A stretch of 64,000 nt of DNA from an uncultured Actinomycetes bacterium. GTDB lineage: Bacteria > Actinomycetota > Thermoleophilia > Gaiellales > Gaiellaceae. The stretch lies in assembly GCA_963755155.1 (NCBI GenBank), contig CAVWIV010000004.1, forward strand, positions 24,386 to 88,385. Reading direction: 5' to 3'. Positions 949-7,347 of the stretch are shown one piece after another. Made by a program: the position numbers and the translations under genes. Under the pieces are notes generated by a model. That model saw only the letters and a list, made by a program, of their open reading frames with translations. It was not told the origin of the DNA and ran no database searches. How positions within the stretch are numbered: position 1 is the first letter of the stretch; each line of letters opens with the position of its first letter.

Positions 949-1653
949 ATGACCGATTCACTGCAGAAGTACCTGGCCGAGCTGCTCGGCACGTTCACGC
1001 TCGTCTTCGTCGGCACGATGGGGATCCTCGCCGTGCGAGGCGAGGTCAGCAGCACCAACATCGCCATCGCGTTCACGTTCGGCCTCGCGCTGCTGGCTGG
1101 GCTCTACGCCTTCGCGGATGTCTCCGGAGGGCACTTCAACCCCGGCGTCTCGCTCGCGATGTTCCTCGACAAGCGGCTCGACCTGCCGCACATGATCGGC
1201 TACTGGATCTCCCAGCTGGCCGGAGCGGTGCTGGGCTCGCTCTGCGTGCTCATCGCGTTCAACCAGGACGCCGTGGCGCTGACCGCGACGTTGCCTGGCC
1301 CATCTGGCACCGGAACGGCGTTGTTCCTCGAGTTGCTCGCAACGGCGATCTTCGTGCTCGTCATCCTCAACTCGTCGGCCCTCGAACGGCACGCGGGCAC
1401 CGCCCTCGTCGCGATCCCGCTGACGCTCGTAGCGGCACACCTGGCGCTCATTCCGTTCAGCGGCTCCTCGCTCAACACGGCGCGGAGCTTCGGGCCGGCG
1501 CTCATCGGTTCCGAGTGGACGGACTTCTGGGTCTACATCGTCGGCCCGATCGGCGGAGCGATCGTCGGGTGGCTCGTGTACTCGGTCGTCGTCAAGGGGC
1601 CCAAGACGGCGGAGGTCCCGCCGCCGCCGCCACCCCCGCCGGCTAGCGCGTAA
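949..1653 (+). CDS. MIP-family channel (aquaporin/glycerol-facilitator type) with non-canonical NPG / NTA boxes and a poly-Pro tail
   Basis: Six predicted TM segments. The first box is SGGHFNPGVSLA and the second is SGSSLNTARSFGPAL, where MIPs normally carry NPA. The C-terminus is EVPPPPPPPPASA. RBS ggaggga lies 5 nt upstream of the ATG. Confidence 0.85.
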   Translation: MTDSLQKYLAELLGTFTLVFVGTMGILAVRGEVSSTNIAIAFTFGLALLAGLYAFADVSGGHFNPGVSLAMFLDKRLDLPHMIGYWISQLAGAVLGSLCVLIAFNQDAVALTATLPGPSGTGTALFLELLATAIFVLVILNSSALERHAGTALVAIPLTLVAAHLALIPFSGSSLNTARSFGPALIGSEWTDFWVYIVGPIGGAIVGWLVYSVVVKGPKTAEVPPPPPPPPASA

Positions 1654-2633
1654 CCCGCTCGAGGATCGTCTCGATCCGCTCGGCCTGGCGGCGCACGTCG
1701 TGGCTCTCGGCCGCGGCGCGCGCCGCCGGGTTCGGGCACGGGAGGGCAGCTGGCAGCGCTGAGCCCGCGGGCGATGTCGTCGACGTCGAGCGGATCGACG
1801 AGGACGCCCGACTCCTCGCTGACGAACTCGGGCGGCCCGCCGACGTTCGTCGCGACGACCGAGCGGCCCATGGCCATCGCCTCGAGCAGCGCCTGGCCCA
1901 GCGGCTCGACGAGGCTCGGCTGGCAGACGACGCGTGCGGCGGCGATGTGCTCTCGGACCTCGTCGTGCGGAATGGCGCCGACGAGCTGCACGCCGCGCCG
2001 GCCGGAGAGCGCAGGCCGTAGCGGCCCGTCGCCGACGAGCGTCAGCATCGCGGCCTGGTCGTCCAACCGCTCGAAGGCCTCCGCGAGCCGCACGACGTTC
2101 TTGCGCTCGGTCAGCGTGCCGACGAAGAGGTACGACGTCGGGCCGGCCGGCGCCGGAGCGACGGCGAACCGCTCGACGTCGACTCCGCAGTCGACCACCT
2201 CGGTCTTGCCGCGCGCCTCCGGAACGGCGCGCTCGAGCTCGCCCCGGAGATAGCCGGACACGGCGACGACGGCCGCCGCCCTGCGACAGACCCAGCGAGT
2301 CGCCCGGCGAACTACGGCTCTCGAAGCAGCGTTCGCGACGTCCTGGCCGTGGGCGGTGACGACGAGCGGCGCCCGCGACGCGAGAGCGGCCACGAGACCC
2401 GCGGGCACGAGAAAGTGCGCGTAGACGACGTCCGGCCGGAACGCCCGCGCGGCCCGCCTCGCGTCGCGGGCGAGCGCGACGTAACGCCCTCTCCCGCCCT
2501 TGCGCCGGTCGACGACCGCGCGCCCGATCTCGTGCCCGCGCTCCCGAAGCGTTGCCTCGATGCCCTGAACGAAGACTCCGAAGTCCGGGTCATCAGGCCC
2601 CGGGTACATCTGCGAAACGAGGAGGATTCGCAA
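1643..2633 (-). CDS. GT4-family (GT-B) glycosyltransferase; one inferred frame break near 1750
   Basis: Starts MRILLVSQMYPGPDDPDFGVFV and contains PSLVEPLGQALLEAMAMGRSVVATNVGGPPEFV (E-x7-E region). After DIARGLSAA the called frame (ORF 1533..2633) becomes Arg/Gly/Pro junk and runs 120 nt into the MIP gene. The neighbouring frame reads AALPCPNPAARAAAESHDVRRQAERIETILERVTR and stops at 1643. Confidence 0.8.
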
Positions 2634-2642
2634 CGCGGCGGA

Positions 2643-4072
2643 TCAGCCGCGAACGACCTGGACGATGCCGAGGCACATCTCGTCGGTCGTCCCCTCGCCC
2701 CAGAGCACGTACCTCGGCGTCTTCGGGATGCCGTGGCCGCCGTGGTGCCGCCGCATGGGATCGAAGCGGCACGTCACGCGAACGACGTCGCCGGGCTTCG
2801 CCTCGACCGGATCTGCGAGCTCGTATGCGTTCTGCCAGTGGAAGTCCCAGCGCGGGATGTCGAGCAGCACCTTGCTGTCGGCGCGGCCGGGGTTGAGCTC
2901 GATGCGAATCGACTTGCCGAGCAGGTGCATGTGCCCCGCGACCATGTGAATCGTCGTCGCGACCGGAACGTTGCGGTCGCACGTGGAGACCGTCGATGCC
3001 TTCGGCTTCGCGGCGTCCTTGCCGCAGAAGAACAGCAACGCGCCCGGCACGACCGCGGCGAGCGAGCCGTACTTGCGGCCGAGGTCGGCGAGCGCCGCGT
3101 CACGGTTGCACAGGCGCCCCTTCTCCCCCTTGACGCAGGCGAGCTCGACCGGCGCGGGCAGCAGCACCGTCTCCAGCGAGTCGAGCCCCGCGGGCTGTGC
3201 GAGCGCAAACACCGCGCGGGAGCGGTCGGGCGCTCCGCCGTTCACGAGGTTGTAGTGCACCTGCATCACGACGAGGCTGCCCTTCGGCAGGGAGACGCCG
3301 GTGCCGTCGGGAAGGCGGCCCGATCCCCAGCCCGGCGCCCAAGCGGAGATCCATGGCGCGTCGTCGAGCGCCGGCTGTCCGGAGTTGACGCCGATGCCGC
3401 CGAAGCACGACCAGCCGGCGCCGGCGGACGCGGCATCGAGTTGCTTCGCGCCGGCCGTCGCAGTCGCGGGGATGCGGAAGAGGATCACGTGGTGCACGAC
3501 CGAGCGGGCGCCCGGCCGGATGCTCGCCGACGTCGCGTAGGCGTCCTCCGTGAGCTTCGGGTCGAGCAGGAAGCAGCGGTAGTCGTCGGTGACGCCGGCC
3601 TTCGCCTTCGGGTTGTACGTCGCCGGCATCGCGAGCGTGAGCAGGCGCTCGCCGGAGCGAACCTCGGTCGTCACAGCGGCCGGCTTGCCAACCGTGCCCG
3701 ACGCCTTCCCGCCCGCCTTCGCCCAGCGCACGAGCGTCGATCGCTCGGGCGCCGTCAGCTGCCTCGTGTCCTCACCGACGTACTCCGGCGACGCCGGGCC
3801 AGGCGGCCACGGCGGCATGACCTTCGCATCCACGGCCGCCCCGATCGCCTGCGCCCACTTCGTGGCCTGTTTCGCCGTCTGGAGCGAGAACGGCGCGATC
3901 CCGCCGAGCTGGTGGCAACCCGTGCACTTCTCGCGGAGGATCGGGGCAACGTCTCGCTGGAAGCTCGGCGCAGCGGCGGGCGCGCGATCGTTCCGGTCGC
4001 CGCGCGAGGCGGCGACGGCGACGATCGGCACGAGCAGCGCGGCGGTGACAGCGACTGCGACGGGAGCTCGCC

Positions 4073-4076
<4 letters not shown>
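2643..4076 (-). CDS. Secreted copper type II (PHM/DBH-like) monooxygenase homologue with an N-terminal CxxCH heme-c-type motif
   Basis: Signal peptide MRRAPVAVAVTAALLVPIVAVAAS. The motif CTGCH sits in FQRDVAPILREKCTGCHQLGGIAPFSL. All six PHM-type copper ligand positions are recognisable: SVVHHVILF, MQVHYN, AGHMHLLG and TTDEMC. The start overlaps the mutase stop (ATGA). Confidence 0.75.
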
Positions 4077-5642
<1,566 letters not shown>

Positions 5643-5659
<17 letters not shown>

Positions 5660-6587
5660 GCTCCAATCGTACGTCCGCCGGGCCGCGCATCGTCAGTGTG
5701 CTCCGGCTCGGCTCGGGCCGGTAGCCGAGCTTGGCGTTCAGCGTCCGCATCGGGAGGTTTCGCTCCTCGCTGCCGGTGACGAGCCGCTCGAAGCCGGCAC
5801 GCTTCGCGGCGGCGATCTGCGTTCGCTTGAGCGCGGTGGCGACGCCGCGTCGGCGCCAGGCGCGCCGAACCGCCGTCAAGCCGTTGAGACCGTCACGGCC
5901 CTGGTCGTCCATCGAGACATACCCGACCGGCTCACCGTTGGCGACCGCGACGAAGAGCAGGTCGCGCCGCCGCGTCGGCCGATCGAGCTCGATCGCGCGC
6001 CACTGCTCGAAGCTCATGTCGCCCGGAGTGCCCGGAATGTCGGCCGCTGCCTCTACGCCCACTGCGTAGAGCGCGTCCGCCAGCTCCGGACGGTCGGCCA
6101 GGGACACGATCTCCACGTCCGGCGGGACGCGCACGGGCTCGGGCTCGAGCGCCGTGAGGTCCAGCGCGACGGCCTGCTCTCCGCCGACGACGCGGTAGCC
6201 ACGCCGGCCGAGGTACTCCTGCGACTCGACGTCGCTCTCGACGACCTCGCCTTCCAGCTCCGGCCGGCCGGCCTTCGCGGCTCGGCGTCCGAGATCCGCG
6301 AGCAGCGCCGAGCCGATGCCGCGCCGCCGTAAGGCGGGGACGACGACGAGATGGACCCGCGCGAGGTCGTCGGGCCACGGATCGACGAACCCGCAGCCTG
6401 CGGGGTCTCCGCCGAATCGCGCGATGACATAGACGAGCGTCTCGTTGGCGGCGAGGTTGTGCCGCAGATTCTCGAGCCGCGGCGGCGGCCGGTCGGGATC
6501 GGCGGCGGTGCGAACGGCGATCATCACTTCGAGGTCGGTGTCGCTCTGCGCGCGCACGACCGAGAGGCCGGGAACAGCCTGAGTCAT
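5643..6587 (-). CDS. Tandem-GNAT acetyltransferase (two GNAT domains)
   Basis: Two acetyl-CoA motifs (VVPALRRRGIGSALL and VRRAWRRRGVATALK) in one 314-aa ORF. Its stop overlaps the mutase start by 17 nt. Confidence 0.8.
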
Positions 6588-6711
6588 GGTGAGCTCTCCT
6601 TGGGGAGTCGGGAACGTCAGCCGGACGGCTGCGTCACGTGCGAACTGGGTTTGGCATAGCGCACCTCCCGACTGGAGAGCCTGCGAAGCGATCGTAGTGT
6701 CTACTTTCGTC

Positions 6712-7347
6712 GTGGTGCAAGTCCGTGTGAGGCTGTTCGCGGGGCTGCGGGAGCGGGCAGGCTGGTCGGAGCGAGAGCTCGACGGCGTCGAGCGCGTGGC
6801 CGACGTCTGGGCCGCGCTCGAGCTCGGAAACGAGCCGCCGGGCCTCCTCTACGCGGTCAACCGCGCGTACGCCGCACCCGACCGGGAGCTGGCAGACGGC
6901 GACGAGGTGGCGCTCATACCGCCCGTCTCGGGCGGCGCGTTCCGGCTCAGCTCTGAGCCTCTCGACGTGGCGGCGGTCGTCGCCGAGGTCGCGGACGAGC
7001 GCGCCGGCGGCACCGCGGTCTTCGTCGGCACGACGCGCGTCCAGTCTCGCGGCCGGACGGTTCTCCACCTCGACTACGAGGCTTACGAGGGCATGGCCGA
7101 GCAGGTCATGGCCGACCTGGCGGCCGAGCTCGAACGCGAGTACGACCTCTGCGCCGTGGCCATGGCCCACCGCGTCGGCCGCGTCGGGATCGGCGAGTCG
7201 TCGGTCGTGATCGCCGTGTCCGCACCCCACCGCGAGGACGCCCTCGCGGCGTGCAAGGACGCCATCGACCGCCTCAAGGAGACCGTGCCGCTCTGGAAGA
7301 AGGAGGTCTACGAAGGCGGCGAGGAGTGGATCGGCCGGGGCTCGTAA
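6712..7347 (+). CDS. Molybdopterin synthase MoaD-MoaE fusion protein
   Basis: The N-terminal roughly 75 aa is a MoaD/ThiS-like beta-grasp ending EVALIPPVSGG. It is directly followed by a MoaE domain (AVFVGTTRVQSRGRTVLHLDYEAYEGMAE...MAHRVGRVGIGESSVVIAVSAPHREDALAACKDAIDRLKETVPLWKKE). The start is placed at the in-frame GTG 6712/6715, because the upstream part of ORF 6586..7347 is not MoaD-like. Confidence 0.85.
   Translation: MVQVRVRLFAGLRERAGWSERELDGVERVADVWAALELGNEPPGLLYAVNRAYAAPDRELADGDEVALIPPVSGGAFRLSSEPLDVAAVVAEVADERAGGTAVFVGTTRVQSRGRTVLHLDYEAYEGMAEQVMADLAAELEREYDLCAVAMAHRVGRVGIGESSVVIAVSAPHREDALAACKDAIDRLKETVPLWKKEVYEGGEEWIGRGS

Follow-up and report, generated by a model that had tools for sequence, protein, structure and literature searches.

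Two-copper hydroxylases of the PHM and DBH type make noradrenaline and amidated hormones in animals, and to our knowledge they have been studied almost only as ascorbate-dependent animal proteins. How might such an enzyme be supplied with electrons in a bacterium? This question is raised by a gene on the minus strand of a 64,000-nucleotide stretch of DNA (the window; contig CAVWIV010000004.1 of assembly GCA_963755155.1, positions 24,386 to 88,385) from an uncultured soil member of the Gaiellaceae (Actinomycetota, Thermoleophilia, Gaiellales). An earlier interpretation, made from the letters of the window and termed here the sequence-only reading, had described the product as a PHM/DBH-like copper monooxygenase carrying a CxxCH module as a built-in electron donor. 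The 477-residue product of open reading frame 2643..4076 consists of a signal peptide or membrane anchor, a CxxCH module of ~90 residues, and a core with the PHM/DBH fold. We consider it likely that the protein is an exported, haem c-fed two-copper oxygenase of the PHM/DBH type, a mechanism for which we infer cofactor loading, the direction of electron flow, and the oxygenase chemistry. The features of the gene, in window coordinates, are as follows.

2643..4076, minus strand: whole gene, a fusion of a cytochrome c with a PHM/DBH-like two-copper monooxygenase (open reading frame, Pfam, AlphaFold2, Foldseek)
4005..4076, minus strand: signal peptide or membrane anchor, residues 1-24, MRRAPVAVAVTAALLVPIVAVAAS (read from sequence)
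3702..3971, minus strand: cytochrome c-type module, residues ~36-125, comprising a helix, CxxCH, central helices, an MPPW loop, and a C-terminal helix (sub-cutoff Pfam matches, PDB profile matches, AlphaFold2)
3912..3926, minus strand: CTGCH haem c attachment motif, C51/C54, with H55 as predicted proximal ligand (invariant in alignments A1 and A4)
3807..3818, minus strand: MPPW motif, with M87 as candidate distal haem ligand (M87-P88-P89-W90 invariant in A1 and A4)
3177..3659, minus strand: CuH (electron-accepting) beta-sandwich, residues ~140-300, with staple cysteines C168/C224 (Pfam, PHM profile alignment)
3489..3494, minus strand: CuH ligands H195-H196, equivalent to PHM H107/H108 (aligned to PHM VHHMLLF, invariant)
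3249..3263, minus strand: QVHYN, with H274 as third CuH ligand (PHM H172) and Q272 equivalent to PHM Q170 (aligned to PHM LQVHYG)
2979..3137, minus strand: helical insert specific to the family, between the sandwiches, residues 314-366, with C314/C323/C351/C366 (model, alignments)
2646..2999, minus strand: CuM (O2-binding, catalytic) beta-sandwich, residues ~360-477, with staple cysteines C436/C468 (Pfam, DBH profile alignment)
2925..2933, minus strand: CuM ligands H382-M-H384, equivalent to PHM H242/H244 (aligned to DBH HTHLTG)
2673..2687, minus strand: TDEMC, with M467 as CuM methionine ligand (PHM M314) and C468 as staple partner (PHM C315) (aligned to PHM SSDEMCNLY and DBH EEMC)

Fold and metal ligands of the copper core

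Pfam, a family profile, and structural comparison with Foldseek all assign the core to the PHM/DBH fold, and none points to an unrelated one. The Cu2_monoox_C model matches residues 374-469 at 32.6 bits, above its cutoff of 23, and Cu2_monooxygen matches residues 180-278 at 25.6 bits, below its cutoff of 30; relatives of the protein exceed the latter (P0144 at 39.2 bits and P0210 at 32.3 bits). No NCBIfam model matches the window protein. A PDB search with the whole protein as a single sequence returned nothing at E values up to 1, and the CuM domain alone gave one nonsignificant DBH match, with PHM absent; PHM and DBH were reached in PDB sequence searches by the family profile only. With that profile, built from 27 members, human DBH (4ZEL) was the best match at an E value of 8.2e-9, followed by rat PHM at ~1e-8. 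Family positions 166-297 align with PHM, placing "vHHvil" on VHHMLLF and "lQvHYn" on LQVHYG, and positions 381-478 align with DBH, placing "hMhelG" on HTHLTG and "dEMC" on DEMC.

The AlphaFold2 model of the whole protein, based on a 52-sequence alignment, has a predicted local distance difference test score (pLDDT) of 87.1 and a predicted template-modeling score of 0.86. When this model was compared with the PDB, the top 31 Foldseek matches were all PHM or DBH (E values of 1.5e-15 to 3e-11, probability 1.00), with DBH ranking second and third, and the next match had an E value of 8e-6. Template-modeling scores for the PHM matches, normalized by target, are 0.54 to 0.67 at 18 to 20% identity.

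Every motif named in the sequence-only reading (SVVHHVILF, QVHYN, GHMHLLG, TDEMC, and CTGCH) lies where it had been placed, and the six ligands claimed there (H195, H196, H274, H382, H384, and M467) are in register with those of PHM and DBH. These six residues are invariant or nearly so among 150 representatives of 50%-identity clusters and in alignments reaching down to 31% identity. H382 and H384 are invariant in alignment A3 and at least 90% conserved in alignment A1 (27 sequences, 31 to 92% identity), while Q272, H274, and Y275, as well as E466, M467, and C468, are invariant in both. The cysteine pairs C168/C224 and C436/C468, which align with the Cu-site disulfide cysteines of PHM and form putative disulfides here, are likewise invariant, as are Y166 and Q272, the equivalents of PHM Y79 and Q170. 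We regard the fold and metal-site assignment as secure at the level of sequence and structure prediction.

Between the two sandwiches lies a Cys-rich insert, modeled with helices at residues 325-336 and 338-350, which some distant family members lack. Its four cysteines (C314, C323, C351, and C366), putatively paired as disulfides, show no variation in A3 and at least 90% conservation in A1.

The haem c-type module and its modularity

The CTGCH motif occupies residues 51-55, ~27 residues past the 24-residue hydrophobic segment. Residues 7-22 of that segment are modeled as a helix of low pLDDT, and the segment carries no lipobox cysteine. A chance origin of the motif is excluded because the composition of the protein predicts 0.005 CxxCH motifs, the motif is invariant across the 27 sequences of A1 (and in A4), and it is widespread among the family representatives (~115 to 124 of the ~129 that cover the region). 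It also occurs in 118 of 120 close homologs, the other two being truncated at the N terminus. The MPPW motif follows ~32 residues after CxxCH and keeps its methionine in 121 of the ~137 representatives that extend over this position; beyond it lies a conserved helix, R.L...E......W..AG. M87 is a strong candidate, and the probable one, for the distal axial haem ligand. Helices of the module are modeled at residues 39-50, 68-83, and 109-120.

Searched alone, the module has Pfam matches to Cytochrome_CBB3 (E value of 3e-4), Haem_bd, and Cytochrom_C, all of them haem c families and all below cutoff; the sole non-haem match, AroM at an E value of 0.14, was taken as chance. Homologous modules of relatives exceed the Cytochrome_CBB3 cutoff of 27 bits (P0198 at 37.1 and P0230 at 34.1 bits). 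In the PDB, a profile of the module finds the C-terminal haem c domain of Kuenenia hydrazine synthase alpha (5c2v_A) at an E value of 5.9e-5, in a match that takes in the start and the terminal helix of the module, followed by Geobacter PccH at 5.3e-4 and OmcF-like cytochromes at ~2e-3. The sequence-only reading had likened the module to planctomycete-type cytochromes; the Pfam PSCyt models give this no backing, since the isolated module has no match to them at E values up to 10 (HMMER filters may hide very weak ones), while the best PDB match does come from the planctomycete Kuenenia.

The organism itself is, to judge from its genes, capable of making c-type cytochromes. Its genome has CcmE next to a 664-residue CcmF-like open reading frame, as well as two further Cytochrom_C_asm genes, and no fewer than eight additional cytochrome c domains exceed the Pfam cutoff; ResB is absent. 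These Ccm System I and cytochrome genes lie on contigs C15 (251746-252894), C3, C5, and C7 of the genome, a cytochrome c repertoire unusually rich for an actinobacterium. No paralogs of the copper enzyme were found in the same genome.

The family to which the gene belongs is large. Among 1.84 billion cluster representatives searched, it accounts for 11,545 clusters (50% identity) at E values up to 1e-3 and 1,449 at E values up to 1e-30, and a scan of species-representative genomes confirmed at least 589 relatives in soil Actinomycetota, Deinococcota, Chloroflexota, and other phyla. The haem module is present in the Gaiellaceae, other Thermoleophilia, one Pseudomonadota metagenome-assembled genome (MAG), the Deinococcales, and relatives from the Chloroflexota. 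In two independent Thermaceae genomes, module and core are encoded as separate neighboring genes (locus L050, 7914-9545, of a Meiothermus MAG and locus L060, 514-2135, of a Thermaceae MAG). Each of the split genes has its own signal or membrane segment, those of L060 are in different reading frames, and the stand-alone modules have a PccH match in Pfam, below cutoff.

Many members of the class Actinomycetes encode the core without the module, among them Nocardioides, Marmoricola, Terrabacter, Humibacillus, Actinoplanes, Micromonospora, and Plantactinospora. These forms differ from the window protein in beginning with a lipoprotein signal (..AACG/SCG..), which is followed by a His-rich low-complexity linker that might serve in copper capture. 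Core-only loci lie within the series L031 to L084 and include those of Nocardioides koreensis (L039), Humibacillus xanthopallidus (L044), and Actinoplanes regularis (L081), all of them culturable. A maximum-likelihood tree built on the core groups the 44 module-less forms in a single clade (support 100/99), which lies among fused forms as sister to the fused clade of the Gaiellaceae (98/91); the two split forms also group together (100/100). With the tree rooted at its midpoint, this reads as one loss of the module and one fission.

Further domains are joined to the protein in some relatives. YceI is the commonest, in 16 of the 46 longest representatives; a fusion to AhpC/TSA and thioredoxin-like domains (P0198) and one to an EF-hand occur once each. 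YceI, cytochrome c, and core are combined, in that order, in triple fusions in Thermoflexus hugenholtzii (L056, 2931-5213) and an Anaerolineae MAG (L068, 7158-9512), and immediately upstream of each lies a divergent TetR-family regulator gene. The start of the cytochrome c gene in Meiothermus is overlapped by a gene whose LolA-like match is weak and below threshold. This gene is one of three small secreted or lipoprotein reading frames, the other two without Pfam matches, that directly precede the cytochrome c and core genes (L050, 4110-10281); overlapping start and stop codons along this series suggest a dedicated operon, and a histidine kinase and response regulator pair, as read from the sequences, lies upstream.

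Electron supply, substrate, and rival explanations

The sequence-only reading had proposed the module as a built-in electron donor, an idea that is supported by the conservation of the module, its haem c-type matches, the split genes, and the tree. Taken with the ligands of the core, the haem c maturation genes, and the split, lost, and fused arrangements, these findings support haem as a relay to CuH, and CxxCH is plausibly part of a conserved, autonomous haem c-type module that feeds electrons to the copper core. As we picture it, the protein would be an exported three-part redox enzyme made up of a signal or anchor, a small class I-like cytochrome c, and a non-coupled two-copper oxygenase core. 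Haem would be bound covalently by C51 and C54 and ligated axially by H55 and, probably, M87; its electrons would come, on the outer side of the cytoplasmic membrane, from the respiratory chain or from another of the organism's many c-type cytochromes. The haem would then pass single electrons to CuH (H195, H196, and H274), from which they would reach CuM (H382, H384, and M467), where O2 would be activated and a C-H bond of the substrate hydroxylated. The scheme would follow that of PHM and DBH, except that the fused haem would stand in place of ascorbate (vitamin C); by analogy, such a replacement is probable.

PHM, the catalytic core of PAM (1PHM, 1OPM, 1SDW, 3MLL), has the two-beta-sandwich fold in common with the window protein (Foldseek E value of ~1e-15), and its CuH (His-His and His) and CuM (His-x-His and Met) ligands, Cu-site disulfide cysteines, Y79, and Q170 all have counterparts there. 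The window protein differs in being bacterial and exported, in having a fused cytochrome c in place of ascorbate dependence, and in its additional Cys-rich helical insert (314-366). It also does not keep the carboxylate clamp: N316 and Y318 of PHM are replaced by L469 and I471 (DEMCNLY versus DEMCLGI), and R240, in the PHM numbering that we assume, would fall at A380, a nearly invariant alanine two residues before the first CuM histidine. Orthology with PHM is ruled out because these substrate-carboxylate residues are not conserved, and no PAL lyase partner was found in the neighborhood of the gene. Judged by sequence, a glycine-extended peptide bound as in PHM is not the substrate.

Human DBH (4ZEL) and tyramine beta-monooxygenase (TBM) share this catalytic core and its ligands. 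DBH works with ascorbate on phenylethylamines, and it carries an N-terminal DOMON domain as well as a dimerization domain where the window protein has a c-type haem module. Since DOMON was not detected in the window protein (no Pfam match at E values up to 0.1) and a CxxCH module occupies the N terminus, membership in the DBH/TBM/MOXD branch was rejected. The matches of the haem module to hydrazine synthase alpha (5C2V chain A, ~640-770) and PccH (4RLR) are short and cover mainly the haem attachment segment, and the partners and functions of these proteins are unrelated. They have in common with the module the start F.RD..PIL..KC..CH and, in hydrazine synthase alpha, also the terminal helix LS..E...W...GA. 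The C-terminal haem of hydrazine synthase alpha is bis-His coordinated; the distal ligand of the window module is probably methionine (MPPW).

The closest parallel for the proposed electron supply is offered by Cellvibrio japonicus, whose Cbp2D joins a YceI-like ubiquinone-binding domain (X158) to c-type cytochrome domains (Branch et al. 2021, PMC8981238). One of these, CjX183 (+193 mV), takes the place of ascorbate in reducing bacterial copper lytic polysaccharide monooxygenases (LPMOs) and sustaining their activity (PMC8981238). As is proposed for the window protein, a small c-type cytochrome there gives single electrons to an extracytoplasmic copper oxygenase and replaces ascorbate, and the YceI-like quinone- or polyisoprenoid-binding domain recalls those relatives of the window gene in which YceI, cytochrome c, and copper core are fused. 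In contrast to the window protein, the copper partner of Cbp2D is a mono-copper histidine-brace LPMO of unrelated fold, and electrons pass there from one protein to another; a YceI domain, for its part, is absent from the window protein. It is because of this analogy and the unchanged PHM-type sites that we judge haem-fed two-copper oxygenation to be the most likely mechanism.

The YceI fusions, the weak LolA-like neighbor, and the TetR neighbors, all features of relatives and not of the window protein, point weakly to a ligand of lipophilic or isoprenoid nature that would be the substrate or a quinol source of electrons. A broader scheme, in which the family is a self-sufficient, ascorbate-independent prokaryotic PHM/DBH branch connected directly to the respiratory chain, with electrons running from quinol (YceI) through haem c and CuH to CuM and with lipophilic or isoprenoid envelope substrates in place of peptides or amines, strikes us as rather doubtful.

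Several observations weigh against the haem-fed oxygenase mechanism. The Cytochrome_CBB3 score of the window protein stays below cutoff, at 18.3 bits for the whole protein and 21.5 bits for the isolated module. The AlphaFold2 model of the isolated module (pLDDT of 84.2) has no significant Foldseek match (E values of 0.74 to 5.7, template-modeling score of ~0.35, cytochrome c551 best). Because an entire clade works without the module, the core does not intrinsically depend on haem. The family loci compared revealed neither a conserved functional partner nor a gene related to a substrate, and evidence of transcription is lacking in the matching sequencing runs, which are low-share soil and rhizosphere DNA with no RNA among them.

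The first two of these points bear on the idea that CxxCH binds no haem and serves a helical N-terminal domain as a disulfide or copper-handling motif. The other features of the module speak against it, however: an invariant CxxCH and an invariant MPPW ~32 residues on match a His/Met class I cytochrome c in spacing and residue type, the sub-threshold sequence matches are to haem c families or haem c sites, relatives exceed the Pfam cytochrome cutoff, and the protein is predicted to be exported by an organism with Ccm System I. Moreover, six of the eight weak structural matches listed for the isolated module are cytochrome c domains, including c551 and the c-domains of cd1 nitrite reductase, and we regard a haem-free motif as very improbable. 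The absence of a conserved substrate-related neighbor, together with the accessory and patchy occurrence of the gene (see below), would also suit an oxidase or peroxide-scavenging electron sink, a protective or respiratory side branch in which electrons from the respiratory chain enter by way of the haem and are spent at the copper sites on the reduction of O2 or H2O2. When uncoupled, reduced copper oxygenases such as LPMOs readily make H2O2 from O2, and family member P0198 joins the core to AhpC/TSA peroxiredoxin and thioredoxin-like domains. Turnover of O2 to H2O2 by uncoupled copper oxygenases is also discussed elsewhere (PMC8981238). However, such AhpC fusions are rare (1 of the 46 long representatives), dedicated oxidases and peroxidases rely on different metal sites, and the complete PHM-type CuM site (His-x-His and Met, with its staple), which in PHM is coupled tightly to C-H hydroxylation, is strictly conserved; we therefore think an electron sink unlikely. 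Flow in the reverse direction, from a substrate oxidized by the core through haem c to the respiratory chain, would make the protein a dehydrogenase. Fused cytochromes c are often the electron exit in periplasmic dehydrogenases, the PDB matches include cytochrome subunits of fructose and alcohol dehydrogenases, and the direction of transfer cannot be read from sequence. Yet the CuM His2Met site is specialized for O2 activation, the ligand set is that of the animal enzymes, and we know of no member of the PHM, DBH, and TBM fold that acts as a dehydrogenase, so that we consider this alternative quite improbable.

PHM and DBH are textbook enzymes, and the long-range transfer of electrons from CuH to CuM in them is still debated. 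Our full-text literature searches found no paper on bacterial homologs, and a 2025 review of PHM/DBM chemistry contains no passage on them (PMC12164859). Relatives of the window protein are annotated in databases as [quoted passage not shown] "mono/diheme cytochrome c family protein," or "hypothetical protein." As judged from its sequence, the gene would encode a PHM/DBH-type copper oxygenase to which a haem c donor is tethered, a known kind of core in a new variant. If this is correct, the tethered one-electron donor would offer a defined and triggerable electron input for kinetics and spectroscopy, and the passage of electrons from a cytochrome c to a copper oxygenase, so far demonstrated only for LPMOs, would extend to a second copper oxygenase fold. 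Were the broader, quinol-fed scheme to hold, the family would represent a new class of extracytoplasmic lipid or quinone hydroxylase; given its size and spread, a widespread extracytoplasmic oxidation reaction is at stake. The present analysis adds the natural split-gene forms of the Thermaceae, the module-less forms of culturable Nocardioides, Actinoplanes, Terrabacter, and Humibacillus as experimental entry points, and evidence against a functional link to the neighboring genes.

The gene neighborhood

The following genes surround the copper-enzyme gene in the window.

5643-6587, minus strand: tandem GNAT, upstream (window open reading frame)
4073-5659, minus strand: methylmalonyl-CoA mutase (MCM) catalytic subunit, upstream (PF01642, 737 bits)
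1533-2633, minus strand: GT4 glycosyltransferase of 366 residues, downstream (Pfam)
949-1653, plus strand: aquaporin (MIP), convergent on the GT4 gene (window open reading frame)
6586-7347, plus strand: MoaD-MoaE-like (molybdopterin synthase) fusion of 253 residues, divergent (read from sequence alone)

The sequence-only reading had seen in the mutase, GNAT, copper-enzyme, and GT4 genes a likely co-transcribed and unusual enzyme set, and its account of the junctions is accurate: all four genes are on the same strand, and the copper-enzyme gene overlaps the mutase gene by 4 nt (ATGA) and is separated by 9 nt from the TTG start of the GT4 gene. This spacing and the order MCM-copper enzyme-GT4, found in 17 to 20 Gaiellaceae loci, would favor one pathway shared by the four proteins, and co-transcription with MCM and GT4 may indeed occur. 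However, no relative below ~54% identity has this order. None of 80 related loci contains a match to the GNAT, and in a genome of the same genus (L085) the interval from the mutase to the next conserved gene lacks it; because of both findings, it is a second variable insertion in the region. The compartments differ as well, since the mutase and GNAT are cytoplasmic and the copper enzyme is exported, and the apparent database fusions of copper enzyme and GT4 (P0159, P0182, and P0265; 637 to 872 residues) proved to be frameshifted Gaiellaceae contigs with out-of-frame Arg/Ala/Pro-rich stretches.

The copper-enzyme gene is carried by 8 of 121 genomes of the order (7 of 62 high-quality genomes, 5 of 36 genera) and is missing from a 98%-complete genome of the same genus. 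Where it is absent, MCM and GT4 are directly adjacent in five of six genomes, the same-genus one among them, the sixth locus being too short to show the arrangement. Because of this patchy carriage and the adjacency of its neighbors in noncarriers, the gene is an accessory one, gained or lost inside a conserved MCM-GT4 backbone, and in this lineage it has no functional tie to its neighbors. The enzyme set as a functional unit therefore does not hold up, and we find a common pathway hardly credible. The mutase, which had been singled out as lacking a B12 domain, is of the ordinary split-subunit type, with B12-binding domains encoded elsewhere in the genome.

Some family loci elsewhere have housekeeping genes as neighbors. 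The Nocardioidaceae-type locus lies between HIT and PhoH/YbeY genes in an hrcA-dnaJ-rsmE region (names from translated sequences), and a gatA-like gene near Thermoleophilia loci is of the same kind. With the Gaiellaceae synteny limited to that lineage and housekeeping genes at these other loci, we rejected the neighborhood as a guide to function.

Two minor observations concern the flanks of the region. The 3' end of the GT4 gene overlaps that of the convergent aquaporin gene by ~120 nt (1533-1653); the Pfam domains of GT4 end near residue 295 of 366, and a poly-Gly run within its tail mirrors the poly-Pro C terminus of the aquaporin on the opposite strand, so that the true end of GT4, or the relevance of its tail, is uncertain. 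In the MoaD-MoaE-like reading frame, a mid-protein ...IPPVSGG precedes the MoaE-like half, and the gene is conserved beside the mutase in relatives.

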